Below are positions 4,017 to 13,541 of a stretch of DNA of 13,541 nt, in pieces. How positions within the stretch are numbered: position 1 is the first letter of the stretch; every line of letters starts with the position of its first letter. The DNA comes from a virus (lineage: Duplodnaviria > Heunggongvirae > Uroviricota > Caudoviricetes), in the IMG/VR virus record IMGVR_UViG_3300029498_000044. One strand, 5' to 3'. The notes under the pieces were generated by a model. The model saw only the letters and a list, made by a program, of their open reading frames with translations. It ran no database searches and was not told where the DNA came from. The position numbers and the translations under genes were made by a program.

Positions 4017-4644
4017 TGCTCACATCCAAATCTTTATCCTTCGTACGCCGACGAAGAGGCACCTTATTAATCTCCGCTTCGTCAGGGAGTGTGTTATAAT
4101 CAAGAGGCATAAGCGGCATCGATGCTGTAGATTGATGAGAAACTATACTAATCTGAGCACCATAAGTATTAAATCCAACAAGAGCTACCTCCCAACGAGG
4201 CAGTGTGGACTCTAATTCACCATCGCCCTCTTCGGATAAAAAAGGCTCAGCTATGACTCGCCATGTAATATCTTGCTCAGCCTCAACATCACCAAACAAT
4301 GAGAGCTGCTCATACTCTACTTTATTTCGACGCAGACGATGTTTCTTTTTGGGGTTATTAATGCAATCTTTGGTAAATTGTAGCGGAACTTTATTTAAAG
4401 CAACTACATAGTCCAACCCCTTGGAAATCATCTCAAGGCCAGGAATTGCATCTTCATTTTGAATAAGATGATTTCTGACCCAATCATAAGCCCTTACACC
4501 TTCAGACCAGTTGCTGTCTAATGCGTGCTTATGATAGTACAGCTGCTCAAGTACGTTAGCGATCTCCGCCAACAAGTGGCGAACATAGTTTTCAGCAAGA
4601 TAAGGTTGAAATTCCCAACAAGGAGCTAACTGATTTTCATTCAT
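3994..4644 (-). CDS. Hypothetical 216-aa protein, operon partner of the HTH-peptidase; candidate effector or toxin
   Basis: Long ORF with no motif I recognise. Contains a basic patch KKKHRLRRNK. Its 3' end overlaps the downstream peptidase gene. Weak SD. Confidence 0.7.
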   Translation of the reverse strand: MNENQLAPCWEFQPYLAENYVRHLLAEIANVLEQLYYHKHALDSNWSEGVRAYDWVRNHLIQNEDAIPGLEMISKGLDYVVALNKVPLQFTKDCINNPKKKHRLRRNKVEYEQLSLFGDVEAEQDITWRVIAEPFLSEEGDGELESTLPRWEVALVGFNTYGAQISIVSHQSTASMPLMPLDYNTLPDEAEINKVPLRRRTKDKDLDVSSDGTSGE

Positions 4645-4809: not shown

Positions 4810-4965
4810 TTACTCCTCAGGTTCGTAAGCTGTGAAGACAGCGACCTCCGTCTGGCCGGTTCGGATTCGTACCTCGCAGAGGTCTTTCCTCGTTACCAGT
4901 GCCGTCACAATGACGGTTAAACAGATGACGATCAGGGCGATTAGCATCGCCTTTTGCTGCTTCAT
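4810..4965 (-). CDS. hokD: Hok-family type I toxin (small membrane peptide, 51 aa)
   Basis: MKQQKAMLIALIVICLTVIVTALVTRKDLCEVRIRTGQTEVAVFTAYEPEE is a canonical Hok/Gef sequence and matches my memory of HokD/RelF. Track ORF 4810..5022 carries a 19-codon upstream extension at the mok-like position. Confidence 0.85.
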   Translation of the reverse strand: MKQQKAMLIALIVICLTVIVTALVTRKDLCEVRIRTGQTEVAVFTAYEPEE

Positions 4966-5169
4966 AGCCTGCTTCTCCTTGCCTTTCGGCACGTAAGAGG
5001 CTAACCTACGTGTGTAGAGCATAGATATGGCCTCAGATTAATGTTAAGCGTCTTGCCGGACGCGTAATGTTAACTGGGGCTTTTCTCTATCTGCCTTTTG
5101 GTGTTCATGCCTGAGACAGATAGCCTCAAGCACCCGCTGCAATTCTACTTAACTCTCCTTTTCCCGCAA
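4966..5169 (-). promoter_or_regulatory. hok promoter and long 5' leader with mok-like start and Sok target
   Basis: Minus-strand TTGCGG (5164-5169), 16-nt spacer, TAGAAT (5142-5147). Leader contains GCTTGAGGCTATCTG...CAGATAG complementary boxes. In-frame upstream ATG at 5022. Confidence 0.5.
5014..5090 (+). ncRNA. Candidate Sok-like antisense RNA (approximate coordinates)
   Basis: Plus-strand TTGCCT (4979-4984), 17-nt spacer, TAACCT (5002-5007) would start a transcript antisense to the mok start and SD. The 3' end is not resolved. Confidence 0.3.
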
Positions 5170-5176
5170 ACCGTTT

Positions 5177-5260
5177 TTATCCCCAGCGGCAAATCGAATA
5201 CACCACCAGCGCCACCGCCATCGCAATTCCTACCGTTGTTAATGCTTCAGGCCAGGTCAT
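5177..5260 (-). CDS. Candidate 27-aa hydrophobic peptide ([27 protein letters not shown])
   Basis: ATG overlaps the TGA of the upstream gene (ATGA). GGAGGA lies 9-10 nt upstream. Single predicted transmembrane helix. Not in the ORF track because it is under 60 aa. Confidence 0.3.
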
Positions 5261-5601
5261 CGTAAAATATCCTCCACGCTTATCAGTCCGTTCCGCTCCA
5301 GATAACTCATCGCCTTATCCGGTAATTTGCAGTCTGGCTTCGCTTTCCTCAGTTGCCAGGTTAACTGCTTTACCAGCATGGTTAACTCATCGACCAGACG
5401 CTGATATCCCACTGGTTTGTATTCATGCAATTTACCGGCTGGCTCTGCTGCCAGCGATACCAGTGCGATTTCCAGAACAGCAATATCCATCTTATATGTG
5501 CGGATGATGTCATGGTCGATTGTGCCCGGTATGCACAGTCTCTGTGCTTCAATAGTCTCCTCTGCGTGAGCTATTAACTGCTCTCTGGTAAAAGTCGTCA
5601 T
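5257..5601 (-). CDS. Hypothetical prophage protein (114 aa), paralogous to the next gene upstream
   Basis: ATGA-coupled to the 55-aa ORF. N-terminus MTTFTREQ and segment [11 protein letters not shown] resemble MTTITKER and [11 protein letters not shown] of the neighbour. Confidence 0.6.
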
Positions 5602-5765
5602 GCCGTAGCCCCTTCTTGATATTTTTCAAACCAGAACACAACCGGCTCTGCTTCCAGCGATGCCAGCGCAATCCGTGCCAGTTCCATTTGTTCACCACGG
5701 GTAAGCCCGTTTTCAAGCGGGTTTTTAATGAACAATTCAATACGTTCTTTGGTAATAGTGGTCAT
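5598..5765 (-). CDS. Hypothetical small protein (55 aa), paralog of the 114-aa neighbour
   Basis: Unlisted ORF. AAGGAG 7 nt before ATG at 5765. Stop overlaps the downstream start (ATGA). Confidence 0.6.
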
Positions 5766-6260: not shown

Positions 6261-6476
6261 TCACTCTCCTTTGTTGCTCCTCAAAATTTTATGCCCTGGC
6301 GCAAAAGCACGCGTTTTGTCGGCACTTATTCGCCACCCATCTTTACGTGCCTCTTTTGCACAGCCAGCCCATGACGTACCGATATACTCACCAAAATCTG
6401 GCGACTGATATTTGCCATCCGTACACTGGCGGCAATCACAATAGAGATGCATGGTATAACTTGCGGCAATACCCAT
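6261..6476 (-). CDS. Small Cys-rich protein (71 aa)
   Basis: C-x-C-x2-C cluster (YCDCRQC) plus a further Cys. ATG immediately follows the upstream TGA. Confidence 0.5.
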   Translation of the reverse strand: MGIAASYTMHLYCDCRQCTDGKYQSPDFGEYIGTSWAGCAKEARKDGWRISADKTRAFAPGHKILRSNKGE

Positions 6477-6836
6477 TCAGCCTCCTTTGATGCCCGTGTT
6501 TACAACCAGGCAGGCCTCCTTGAGTACCCAGTCAATAGCGTCTTTCCATGCTCCGGTTTCAACTGGCGGATCCTCACGCCGCACCTGTTCATAAAAGCGC
6601 ACAGCTTTAACCAGTCCTTCTGATGTCACCGAAGCTGGCGGGGCCGTGAATAACGCCTGAATTTCATAGTTTGGTCTGTCGTTACAATCCTCTTTTGTCG
6701 GGACATATTTCCAGTCACCAACCCACTGCTTCCCCTGAAAGTCTGTAACGCCTTTTTTCACGTAGCGATATCGCCATGCCACTGGTTTTGCCTGCCCTAC
6801 CTTTTCATGCCCTTCCTGATAATTAATCTCGCTCAT
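6477..6836 (-). CDS. Hypothetical prophage protein (119 aa)
   Basis: ORF with ATGA overlap to the upstream 58-aa ORF. Confidence 0.6.
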   Translation of the reverse strand: MSEINYQEGHEKVGQAKPVAWRYRYVKKGVTDFQGKQWVGDWKYVPTKEDCNDRPNYEIQALFTAPPASVTSEGLVKAVRFYEQVRREDPPVETGAWKDAIDWVLKEACLVVNTGIKGG

Positions 6837-11142: not shown

Positions 11143-11568
11143 TCAATGCACAGCCACAATATTTCCTGCAGGGCCACCACGATTCATCTGGTTGAAACCA
11201 GCGATCGCCACTGCGACAAAATCATCAGCGTCTCTCACCAGTCGTTCCCGCGTCTCCACCAGCTCCCGAAAATAAGCTGAACTGTGGCTGCGCATTCGGG
11301 CCACCAGCAGAGGCGGCATTGCTTTTTCGATCGCTGGTAACAACGCCTGAATTTTTTTAACCGCATCAGGAGTGTCTTTCTCCACCCAGCGGAAAATTTT
11401 CTGGGTATTGCGAGCCAGGGCTTCCGGATGGCTGTCGTCATATAATTCCGGGAACGTCATACCAAGCTCAAAATAAGCCCGGGTTATTTCAGCTGCCGGA
11501 ACTTTTTCACCGTCCGGATGCGCCCAGGCATTCATCGCCATGCGGATGTGCTCATGCCTGATTTTCAT
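11143..11568 (-). CDS. ydaT: YdaT-like regulator (cII functional analog of Rac-type prophages)
   Basis: 141 aa, MKIRHEHI...IVAVH. N- and C-terminal signature and length match Rac YdaT from memory. Sits between the cro-like and O-like genes. Confidence 0.75.
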   Translation of the reverse strand: MKIRHEHIRMAMNAWAHPDGEKVPAAEITRAYFELGMTFPELYDDSHPEALARNTQKIFRWVEKDTPDAVKKIQALLPAIEKAMPPLLVARMRSHSSAYFRELVETRERLVRDADDFVAVAIAGFNQMNRGGPAGNIVAVH

Positions 11569-11827
11569 GAATCAACTCCGATGCATTTGGTGTGTTAGCC
11601 TTGAATCCAACAGGTAAGCCGTCGGTTGGATTCGGGTAAATATCAGGCCGGAGTTCATGAGGTGTAACCTCGAAATTCGTTACTTCAGCAACACGTAATG
11701 CTTTTTCAGGGCTGAATCTTTCATAGCCCCCCAGCACTCGACTTACATGCACCTGAGATAAACCCGTTAGCTTCCCAAACTGTAGCTGGGTGATATGTTT
11801 CTCTTTTAAATAGTCTCTTAAGTTCAT
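11552..11827 (-). CDS. Cro/YdaS-like HTH regulator
   Basis: HTH segment ITQLQFGKLTGLSQVHVSRVL, followed by an ELRPDIYP motif. ATG at 11827 with GAAGG SD (track start at 11833 is TTG). Divergent from the repressor. Confidence 0.75.
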   Translation of the reverse strand: MNLRDYLKEKHITQLQFGKLTGLSQVHVSRVLGGYERFSPEKALRVAEVTNFEVTPHELRPDIYPNPTDGLPVGFKANTPNASELIHENQA

Positions 11828-11857
11828 AGCCAACCTTCTACGTTATGCCTCGAGCAA

Positions 11858-11934: not shown

Positions 11935-12396
11935 ATGAAAAAAACACGCGAAGTGATTGCAACTCCAGAAGCGAGCAAGAATTTAAAAGCCGCATGGAAT
12001 GCAAGAAAAAAAGAGCTGAAGCTGACTCAAGAGCTGGCGGCTGAGTTGTTGGGATTCGAATCTCAAGGCACCGTTAGCCAGTATCTGAACGGCAAGATAC
12101 CGGTAAATACCGACGCTGCGCTAAAATTTGCGGCTCTGTTAAAGGTAAAACCAGAGGACATTCGAGAAGACCTTAAAGACTTAATGAATTATGTAAGATC
12201 ATCAGATACTTATGATGATAACTTTTCAGGCAAAGGATGGAGGCTGGTCAATGAAGAACAGGCAGAGTTACTTAACCTCTTCGAGATTCTACCTGCGTCA
12301 GAAAAAGCCAAACTCCTTAACCAGCTACGTGGACTAAACAAGCTCTACGAGGAAGCCTTCGAGAACATGCTGGCACTAAAGAAACGTAACCAGTAG
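11935..12396 (+). CDS. Prophage repressor, DicA/RacR-like (HTH_XRE, no S24 peptidase domain)
   Basis: 153 aa. N-terminal XRE HTH (LTQELAAELLGFESQGTVSQYLNG). C-terminal ELLNLFEILPASEKAKL resembles the DicA C-terminus. No LexA-type Ser/Lys autocleavage domain. Confidence 0.8.
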   Translation: MKKTREVIATPEASKNLKAAWNARKKELKLTQELAAELLGFESQGTVSQYLNGKIPVNTDAALKFAALLKVKPEDIREDLKDLMNYVRSSDTYDDNFSGKGWRLVNEEQAELLNLFEILPASEKAKLLNQLRGLNKLYEEAFENMLALKKRNQ

Positions 12397-12422
12397 CCAC
12401 CGCTCACTACCCCATCCACAAC

Positions 12423-12452
12423 AAAAAAACCGACGTCTTAGTCGGTTTTTTT
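12423..12452 (+). terminator. Rho-independent terminator after the repressor gene (potentially bidirectional)
   Basis: Stem ACCGAC/GTCGGT (12429-12434/12441-12446), loop GTCTTA. Flanked by an A7 run upstream and a T7 run downstream. Confidence 0.7.
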
Positions 12453-12549
12453 GTGCCATAACTTCTGCAAATCAGCTGTATAACTAATATTTTTCCCTTG
12501 AAAAAACATTTACATAGTTACCAAATCAAAAATATCATACGCCATACTG

Positions 12550-12578
12550 TTGACTTAAAATATCCGCGTTACTAATAT
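12550..12578 (+). promoter_or_regulatory. pL-like promoter for the ydfABC-dicF operon, with operator-like CTAATATTT motif over the -10
   Basis: TTGACT (12550-12555), 17-nt spacer, TAATAT (12573-12578). CTAATATTT recurs at 12484-12492 and, inverted, in the pR region. Confidence 0.5.
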
Positions 12579-12649
12579 TTCTATCAAGAACAGCACGGCG
12601 CTGTAGGTTTTAGTTCCGCCACCCGGCGTTAAGGGGAAATGAGGTCAGC

Positions 12650-12805
12650 ATGGATACTATCGAGCTTGGCAACAACGAATCTCTGGTGTACGGCGTGTTT
12701 CCCAACCAGGACGGCACATTCACCGCGATGACGTATACCAAAAGCAAAACGTTTAAAACCGAAAATGGTGCCCGTCGCTGGCTGGAAAGAAACTCAGGTG
12801 AGTGA
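12650..12805 (+). CDS. ydfA: Small protein, 51 aa (YdfA/YdaF-like by size and synteny)
   Basis: Unlisted ORF MDTIELGNNESLVYGVFPNQDGTFTAMTYTKSKTFKTENGARRWLERNSGE. GAGG SD 6 nt upstream. First gene after the pL-like promoter. Confidence 0.55.
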   Translation: MDTIELGNNESLVYGVFPNQDGTFTAMTYTKSKTFKTENGARRWLERNSGE

Positions 12806-12806
12806 T

Positions 12807-12935
12807 ATGGATTTCGACACAATCATGGAAAAGGCTTACGAAGAATACTTCGAAGGCCTTGCCGAAGGCGAAGAAGCTCTCAGCTTCAGTGAGTTTAAAC
12901 AGGCGCTTTCCAGCTCGGCAAAATCTAACGGCTGA
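12807..12935 (+). CDS. ydfB: Small protein, 42 aa (YdfB/YdaG-like by size and synteny)
   Basis: Unlisted ORF MDFDTIMEKAYEEYFEGLAEGEEALSFSEFKQALSSSAKSNG. Starts 2 nt after the preceding stop. Confidence 0.5.
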   Translation: MDFDTIMEKAYEEYFEGLAEGEEALSFSEFKQALSSSAKSNG

Positions 12936-12964
12936 TAAGCGAAGCAGCACCGCGAGGAATCAGT

Positions 12965-13183
12965 ATGCAGAAACGAGAACCCGTCATCATCGCGCCAGAC
13001 TATACCGATGATGAACTTTATGAGTGGATGCACCAGAAAATTAATGCAGCGCAGGATCTGAAATGGGCCAATGAAGCCAGGGCTAAGCAGGCTGAAAATC
13101 TGTCCGCTCTGGAGCAGGATATCACTAATCTGGAAAAAGCAGCGGCATTAAGCATTGCCAGAATGATTACATACCCGCGTTAA
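12965..13183 (+). CDS. ydfC: Small protein, 72 aa (YdfC-like by size and synteny)
   Basis: Track ORF with GAGGA SD. Coiled-coil-like sequence. Third small gene before the structured dicF precursor region. Confidence 0.55.
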   Translation: MQKREPVIIAPDYTDDELYEWMHQKINAAQDLKWANEARAKQAENLSALEQDITNLEKAAALSIARMITYPR

Positions 13184-13524
13184 TAGCTAACCAACGAAGC
13201 TAAGGTTGGTAATTAAGGAGTTCTCCACGGGTGAGGTGGAGTGCGTGCGCCGGACACGGGTGAGCATCCGGCACTGACAGTTTACTGAAAGGATATTTCC
13301 CTGAAAAGTCAGACCATAACGCGAAAGCGCACGGCGAGGTAGCTGGTTCATAGATAGCCTGTCGTTAAATTTTCGTCGACCGTGCGCTTCCGGTTGTGGC
13401 AATCCGCGAAATGGCGCGGCGGTAAGTATGGCGGGGTTATTCCTTCCACCGTTGAGGACACCGGGTTGTCAGGTTGACCATACGCTTAAGTGACAACCCC
13501 GCTGCAACGCCCTCTGTTATCAAT

Positions 13525-13541
13525 TTTCTGGTGACGTTTGG
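13525..13541 (+). ncRNA. dicF: 5' end of DicF sRNA (truncated by the window edge)
   Basis: Window ends TTTCTGGTGACGTTTGG, which matches the 5' start of E. coli DicF as I recall it. It is preceded by about 340 nt of GC-rich, hairpin-rich non-coding sequence downstream of the ydfC-like gene. Confidence 0.45.

Follow-up and report, generated by a model that had tools for sequence, protein, structure and literature searches.

A probable copy of the Qin-type dicBF operon in a lambdoid prophage, and a conserved RNA domain upstream of DicF

In Escherichia coli K-12 the operon ydfA-ydfB-ydfC-dicF-dicB-ydfD of the Qin prophage is transcribed from the promoter dicBp as a single RNA, which either stops at the DicF terminator or runs through dicB-ydfD; RNase III cuts it upstream of dicF to give a species of 190 nucleotides (nt) that accumulates in stationary phase, and RNase E produces the 53-nt DicF (PMC10448788). 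The activities known for DicF require no more than the 53-nt form, and the locus occurs in many different prophages (PMC5069750). The literature describes DicF as a repressor of ftsZ and of metabolic mRNAs, and DicB as a protein that blocks division through MinC and excludes some phages. Here we consider the end of IMG/VR record IMGVR_UViG_3300029498_000044, a stretch of 13,541 nt from a virus of the Caudoviricetes; “the window” means this whole stretch. We believe with high confidence, on the basis of sequence comparison, that its positions 12550-13541 represent the promoter-proximal two thirds of a dicBF operon of the Qin type in a lambdoid prophage. To this extent the finding is already known, since it adds one more prophage copy of an ordinary locus. 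What is new here is that the part of the leader between the two processing cuts (13393-13508) is a conserved folded RNA domain.

The dicBF operon at the end of the window

The comparison with K-12 relies on the following features.

12550-12578, + strand: predicted sigma-70-type promoter, TTGACT-17-TAATAT (consensus scan; aligned position of K-12 dicBp)
12613-12649, + strand: conserved 5' untranslated region (UTR) of ydfA (alignment to K-12; BLAST similarity of the locus begins at about 12605-12612)
12650-12805, + strand: ydfA, 51 amino acids (aa), DUF1391 (Pfam PF07151, 96.4 bits; phrog_751)
12807-12935, + strand: ydfB, 42 aa (identity to K-12; phrog_2061)
12965-13183, + strand: ydfC, 72 aa (identity to K-12; phrog_1744)
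13184-13524, + strand: untranslated leader between ydfC and dicF, 341 nt (333/340 identical to the K-12 spacer)
13525-13541, + strand: DicF nucleotides 1-17, a single-stranded seed region at the 5' end; the window stops inside the gene

The 930-nt module, which runs from 12613 to the window end, shares 98% identity with K-12 over its whole length (909/928 aligned bases), and it is this identity, not the truncated Rfam match considered below, that makes the identification significant. A preliminary description of this DNA had proposed three small open reading frames (ORFs) of 51, 42 and 72 aa related to YdfA, YdfB and YdfC. They are present at the positions listed; 50/51, 42/42 and 71/72 residues, respectively, are identical to those of K-12 MG1655 (NC_000913), their order and spacing are the same as in Qin, and Pfam independently assigns YdfA to DUF1391. 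The window further shares with Qin the gene order, the leader (341 nt against 340 in K-12) and the DicF 5' end. The promoter expected ahead of the small ORFs was also found; it occupies the aligned position of dicBp, opposite TTGACC-17-TAATCT of K-12, and presumably functions as a promoter, judging from the hexamers and this alignment.

The mechanical ORF list does not give the 42-aa ORF separately; it is contained there in a 56-aa ORF beginning at an in-frame ATG farther upstream (12765). Each of the three proteins falls into a PHROG family of unknown function. Internal stops are absent from all distinct variants of the genes (34 of ydfA, 18 of ydfB and 31 of ydfC), and the third codon position is the commonest polymorphic one in each (6/12/17, 4/6/12 and 11/7/15 sites by codon position), unlike in the leader (12/15/10); thus, the ORFs behave as real, weakly constrained genes. 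The exact YdfC sequence is indexed in 13,600 blocks of a public assembly collection, and the region is held by 4377/5426 complete E. coli genomes.

The last 17 bases of the window, TTTCTGGTGACGTTTGG (13525-13541), had been taken for the DicF 5' end, and 17/17 of them are identical to nucleotides 1-17 of K-12 dicF. In Rfam RF00039, bases 13526-13541 correspond to model positions 1-16 of 52 and agree at every conserved position. A full match (gathering score 48 bits) consists of the 5' single strand, the stem-loop and the terminator; the canonical stem-loop with terminator, GGCGGUAUCAG...CUGCCGCCC and a U-run, falls beyond 13541. The presumed dicF-dicB module just outside the window is supported through the continuation of relatives, its body not being readable in the window itself. 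The terminal 17-mer is followed by 36 nt of canonical DicF with no more than three mismatches in 76/79 fetched instances. The closest relatives, 98.8-99.0% identical over the last 1.7 kb, continue with DicF (71-77 bits), after which come dicB, ydfD, exonuclease, xis and int; dicB lies downstream in nearly all annotated close relatives. Among the ten contigs with exactly the same YdfC, eight have canonical DicF at the same distance and two have a short DicF variant; dicB is called in nine of them, and L005 has no dicB call, only a ydfD-like DUF1482 gene.

One could suppose that this copy is a remnant, with dicF variant or decayed beyond the window or with dicB missing. After all, the same 17-mer continues differently in three instances (a variant hairpin in L195 and L029, a decayed one in the Shigella copy L211), the short DicF variant of L010 and L012 stays below the Rfam gathering score, and K-12 Qin itself is defective. 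We regard a remnant as very improbable: the nearest relatives, those with the identity given above, all have full DicF and dicB, and the domain variant specific to the window (CCACCG) precedes intact dicF and dicB in ATCC 11775, which is identical to the window over only 127 nt and has a different immunity region.

Several considerations weigh against the identification as a Qin-type operon. Of dicF the window includes just 17 nt, and the truncated match of this fragment to Rfam (15.1 bits, E = 1.2) is insignificant alone; to this must be added the three of the 79 17-mer instances with a variant or decayed hairpin. No searched public genome is 100% identical to the window, so that its continuation is judged from relatives; the best whole-window match among complete E. 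coli genomes has 99.0% identity over 91% of the window. The RNase III site discussed below is placed from the transcript length, not from mapping. Finally, the repressor/Cro pair here is not DicA/DicC, so the regulation by DicA and Rem known in K-12 is not transferable.

The last point reflects a more general difference. Qin of K-12 has DicA/DicC, whereas the window has an unrelated immunity region with a 153-aa helix-turn-helix (HTH) repressor and YdaS- and YdaT-like genes. Also in contrast to Qin, the window prophage keeps its replication genes, and its nearest relatives have Q-antiterminator genes; for both reasons we consider it less decayed than Qin.

Two observations concern the DNA that follows in relatives. 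The short DicF variant, UUUUCUGGUGAUUCGGCGGAAACGGAUAUCCGCCC (L010 6917-6955; also L012 and L141 (E. albertii)), keeps the 5' seed, has a different, shorter terminator hairpin and scores below the Rfam gathering score for DicF. In the closest relatives (L001 5367-6221; also L252) a Rha-family regulator gene is inserted between dicF and dicB; the insert of L001 holds isrK (68 bits, 5418-5494) and C4 antisense RNA (82 bits, 5519-5606), i.e., it is an antirepressor control cassette in the style of P1/P7.

The leader and its folded RNA domain

The leader contains the following elements.

13204-13222, no strand assigned: junction where many relatives have about 590 extra base pairs (bp) or a 124-aa ORF (the BLAST alignments of L002 and L014 are interrupted here)
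13314-13399, + strand: long imperfect stem (inverted repeat; fold of -37.4 kcal/mol, z = -2.9)
13393-13508, + strand: pre-DicF RNA domain, about 115 nt, the last part of the leader (alignments, covariance model R1, pair counts)
13393-99/13502-08, + strand: closing helix P0, GUUGUGG/CUGCAAC
13404-08/13415-19, + strand: small hairpin hp0
13420-23/13460-63, + strand: helix Pa, CGGU/ACCG, which encloses hp1
13432-36/13447-51, + strand: hairpin hp1
13464-71/13491-98, + strand: hairpin hp2, the one cited in the preliminary description
13426-31/13478-83, + strand: pseudoknot, GUAUGG with CCAUAC in the hp2 loop

The preliminary description spoke of about 340 nt of GC-rich, structured sequence with long hairpins. 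The length agrees with the 341 nt measured, and the structure is borne out (the fold of the whole leader has z = -2.3 against shuffles), this being the known RNase III/RNase E processing region; the sequence is only mildly GC-rich, 53.4% against 47.8% for the window. The hairpin cited there, GGGTTGTCA/TGACAACCC, is real, a 9-bp perfect repeat at 13463-13471/13491-13499, but it occupies 13463-13499, about 12 nt to the left of the proposed 13475-13510. Taken alone its energy is ordinary (z = -0.9), and as a sign of unusual structure it was rejected; only comparative data, the compensatory substitutions in relatives, back it. The strongest local structure of the leader is instead the long stem at 13314-13399.

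This stem is probably the RNase III substrate. Counting 190 nt back from the DicF 3' end, the cut that yields the 190-nt species would be expected at about 13388-13392, on the 3' strand of the stem. By homology to K-12, the operon might work as follows. The sigma-70 promoter at the dicBp position would be held off by the 153-aa HTH repressor; once active, it would give one transcript with ydfA, ydfB, ydfC, the 341-nt leader and dicF, continuing into dicB beyond the window. RNase III would cut the leader stem to produce an RNA of about 190 nt, and RNase E would cut the A/U-rich single strand at 13524/13525 to release the 53-nt DicF, which would pair with ftsZ and other mRNAs; DicB, made from read-through transcripts, would block division through MinC. 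From the RNase III cut onwards these steps are known from experiments in K-12 and are carried over to the window on the strength of the 98% identity.

The junction just 3' of ydfC (13204-13222) appears as a recombination point in relatives: the extra segment of about 590 bp holds two overlapping hypothetical ORFs, and O157-like prophages have the 124-aa ORF there.

The domain at 13393-13508 is a cloverleaf-like four-way junction with a loop-to-linker pseudoknot, backed by compensatory changes. The structure rests on 68-72 distinct variants from IMG/VR and species genomes. In the MAFFT alignment 95.5% of cells pair, whereas sliding the partners lowers this to 32-52%, and both sides are changed in 20 cells, a number reached by 0/500 shuffles. 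In the model-fitted alignment, which leans towards the structure, 96.4% of cells pair; double changes occur in 10 pairs, against 3.0 +/- 1.2 in shuffles (0/500 reach 10) and 0-2 in slid controls. Folding the window copy on its own yields the four-way junction again.

The individual helices differ in how well they are documented. Hairpin hp1 occurs as CGGGG/CCCCG, CUGGG/CCCAG, CAGGGG/CUCCUG, CAGGUG/CACCUG, CAGGG/CCCUG and CCCGGG/CCCGGG; hp2 is GGGUAACCA/UGGUUACCC in Izhakiella and GUUGCCA/UGGCAAC in P1. A U-A pair of Pa becomes C-G in P7, and the pseudoknot GUAUGG/CCAUAC becomes GCAUGG/CCAUGC in P1. The closing helix P0 is a weaker case, as its 3' strand has seven variants, all of which pair, and all of them are transitions opposite G or U; hp0 has no double changes. 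Overall, the stems covary, while the loops and junctions are near-invariant.

A coding role for the leader was also considered, i.e., that it encodes small proteins such as a 31-aa ORF at 13382-13477 (+) or a 71-aa ORF at 13187-13402 (-). Open frames do exist within it, and some phage records annotate “hypothetical proteins” across the equivalent DNA. We nevertheless rejected coding potential on both strands and find it hardly credible. No leader ORF on either strand matches a Pfam or PHROG family, and leader polymorphism has no third-position excess (12/15/10 and 6/8/6). Among variants the hp1 segment measures between 26 and 32 nt, and its length changes by steps not divisible by three, from which we conclude that the domain is non-coding. 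The substitutions are compensatory for RNA pairing and include G-U pairs, functional only on the + strand; this places the domain RNA on that strand.

Distribution and possible roles of the domain

A distant search with the leader leads to phages that have neither ydfABC nor an Rfam DicF (P1, P7, cdtI, 2H10, Stx2c phages and pPE4), the common part being about 13393-13508. In P1/P7 the match coincides with the annotated “dicF-like region” directly after the C1-controlled ban promoter; from this annotation it follows that the similarity was noticed before. In P1/P7 the region folds into this same domain (R1 99-111 bits), with an intrinsic terminator behind it, but it lacks the DicF seed and stem-loop (Rfam gives no match), and downstream lie tRNA genes and ban in place of dicB. 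RF00039 covers the 52-nt mature RNA only, a third of which falls inside the window, and not the domain of about 115 nt upstream; DicF-like units whose stem-loops differ escape it, namely those of cdtI and P1 and the short variant of L010 and E. albertii. Rfam 15 has no family over 13393-13508 at E up to 10, and none over the domain copies of P1, P7, cdtI, 2H10 and pPE4 at E up to 0.1. A library text search found the conserved strings of the domain in no paper; the 1990s papers on dicF or the P1 genome may already describe some of this conservation.

The domain is present in 4417/5426 E. coli genomes (81%), with a median of 2 copies and up to 8; 506 places are on plasmids, and none of the records listed annotates the domain. 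Prophages of other Enterobacterales have it too; it turned up in E. albertii, E. ruysiae, Shigella, Citrobacter, Trabulsiella, Erwinia tracheiphila and Izhakiella. On its 3' side nearly every instance has an intrinsic terminator, usually about 16-45 nt on, and the terminator sequences differ; only the Shigella copy L211 is without one. On the 5' side there is a long double-stranded stem whose sequence differs by type (z = -2.9 in the Qin type, -3.5 and -4.8 in the cdtI and Erwinia types); in P1 there is a promoter instead.

A likeness to tRNA or tmRNA was rejected, as ARAGORN finds none in the window or in five related loci. A 20-mer taken from the domain's 5' half gave 111 matches in species genomes, of which only 16 are real by model score; about 95 are chance matches in GC-rich genomes, compared with about 70 expected by our own arithmetic for 18 specified bases in 596 Gb.

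Certain copies have surroundings of their own. In Erwinia, Izhakiella and related prophages (L239 at about 4420-4530; also L249 and L069) the upstream stem encloses an insert with two T-loop-like hairpins, GGGUUCAAUUCCUGCC and GUCCGUUCAAUUCGGAC, in which ARAGORN calls no tRNA. The pPE4 sequence (L017 1600-1790), deposited as an Actinobacillus phage, is E. coli-like here; it has a tandem duplication of the unit formed by the post-domain spacer and terminator, and its ydfA 5' UTR runs straight into the domain, ydfABC being absent. Rfam STnc100 is matched below threshold in L017 (1766-1950, 39 bits) and L015 (3842-3961, 33 bits; gathering score 47). The L017 match lies downstream of the DicF-type terminator and ahead of kil (AAAGUGAAUUUUGUGAUGCGGUGAAUGCGG...), and the same sequence follows dicF in K-12; hence, STnc100 may be this post-terminator leader.

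As to the role of the domain, the reading to which we give most weight, without calling it probable, is that it forms the structural 5' body of a longer small RNA of the DicF family (about 170-190 nt), where it would stabilize the molecule or set the timing of RNase E maturation; it could, in addition, persist as a stable by-product RNA that has its own partner. What borders the unit on the 5' side is alike in kind (a long RNase III-type stem or, in P1, the transcription start), the 190-nt species builds up in stationary phase (PMC10448788), and the stretch from domain to terminator is the variable, seed-like part. Moreover, GUUGUGG (13393-99) has two alternative partners, one upstream in the RNase III stem and one downstream in P0, which suggests refolding after the cut. 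On the other hand, near-invariant loops suggest a specific partner over simple protection, and the 53-nt form suffices for the activities known so far (PMC5069750).

It is less likely, in our opinion, that the domain acts in cis on transcription, either as a nascent-RNA antiterminator similar to put that carries RNA polymerase past the DicF terminator into dicB or as a switch of the riboswitch kind; this would add to the dicBF identification rather than compete with it. The domain would then be an undescribed class of phage RNA that, with the terminator following it, divides transcription between termination (a DicF-type small RNA) and read-through (dicB/kil, recombination or ban genes), a proposal we make with considerable doubt. 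Near-invariant loops and junctions combined with covarying stems are consistent with it, and so is the nearly constant presence of a terminator of varying sequence. The domain sits in early leaders of N-less lambdoid prophages and after the ban promoter of P1/P7. P1 bac mutants express ban as prophages while the other lytic functions stay off, so transcription gets past the leader terminator with no help from a trans-acting phage factor. In K-12 some transcripts terminate and others read through (PMC10448788); a leaky terminator accounts for the read-through equally well. A further objection is the distance from the promoter in the Qin type, about 900 nt. Sequence inspection reveals no alternative pairing of the domain with a terminator arm that is conserved across all types: GCGGUA repeats the terminator 5' arm in the Qin and cdtI types, and as the repeat is missing in P1 we do not accept a conserved antiterminator pairing.

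The put RNA of HK022 is a cis-acting antiterminator that suppresses termination through the zinc-binding domain of the RNA polymerase beta' subunit. Like the domain, it is a structured RNA of about 70-120 nt in the early leader of an N-less lambdoid phage, upstream of terminators, and the two have in common a short hairpin with a purine-rich loop, the -10-like NANNAT (AAGUAU) and an apical CAGGNUGA. The architecture differs, as the domain is a four-way junction with a pseudoknot and put, of about 70 nt, has two stems with a triplex. Homology was rejected: with the filters off, R1 gives nothing at putL or putR in HK022 23000-31000 even at E up to 10 (putL at about 5235-5312 (-) and putR at about 6457-6530 (+), both read from the genome). 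Nor is there a left and a right copy; the domain occurs once per phage region, and R1 has a single match in the 13.5-kb window, which takes in most of the rightward early operon, whereas put occurs once per early operon. With homology failing, a put-like function could be proposed by analogy, and we think it unlikely.

The upstream region and the meaning of the locus

The region upstream of the module contains the following.

11143-11568, - strand: YdaT-like gene, divergent from the repressor gene
11552-11833, - strand: YdaS-like gene, divergent from the repressor gene
11935-12396, + strand: 153-aa HTH repressor, CI-like, not DicA (Pfam HTH_3, 38.6 bits)
12421-12454, no strand assigned: perfect 14-bp inverted repeat with A/T runs on both sides, after the repressor gene; probably a bidirectional terminator

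The divergent YdaS- and YdaT-like genes make this immunity region Rac-like. Against NCBIfam DicA the 153-aa repressor scores 35 bits (cut-off 101), and control by DicA with a divergent dicC, as in K-12, was not found here. The sequence upstream of 12613 does not align to K-12 Qin; as the homology begins there, within the ydfA 5' UTR, we take 12613 as the left module boundary. In other contigs the same module is joined to immunity regions with DicA/Cro-like genes, with an S24-peptidase CI or with ParE/PaaA2.

Around the promoter, an exact 10-nt direct repeat, ACTAATATTT, lies at 12483-12492 and 12571-12580, its second copy overlapping the -10 hexamer; the 153-aa repressor may use the two copies as operator half-sites. 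Another promoter-like sequence, TTTACA-18-TATCAT, is at 12509-12538. At the predicted 5' end of the transcript (12590-12604) there is a 5-bp hairpin, ACAGC-ACGGC-GCUGU, which could be a stabilizing 5' stem-loop; at the aligned place K-12 has a hairpin of different sequence, ACACCG-CA-CGGUGU. Elsewhere in the window, 4960-5135 (-) holds a full-length sok antisense RNA (Rfam RF01794, 117 bits) that belongs to a hok/sok toxin-antitoxin locus of the hokD type; in relatives hokD is annotated at the same position.

For annotation, dicF and dicB are to be expected just past the window, and it should be noted that the NCBI Prokaryotic Genome Annotation Pipeline (PGAP) leaves dicF unannotated. The dicBF module has been spliced under unrelated immunity regions, with the junction in the ydfA 5' UTR, so the signals that switch on these toxic genes differ between prophages. 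If the pre-DicF domain does control termination or maturation, this would explain how one transcript is split between a small RNA and a downstream toxin gene.

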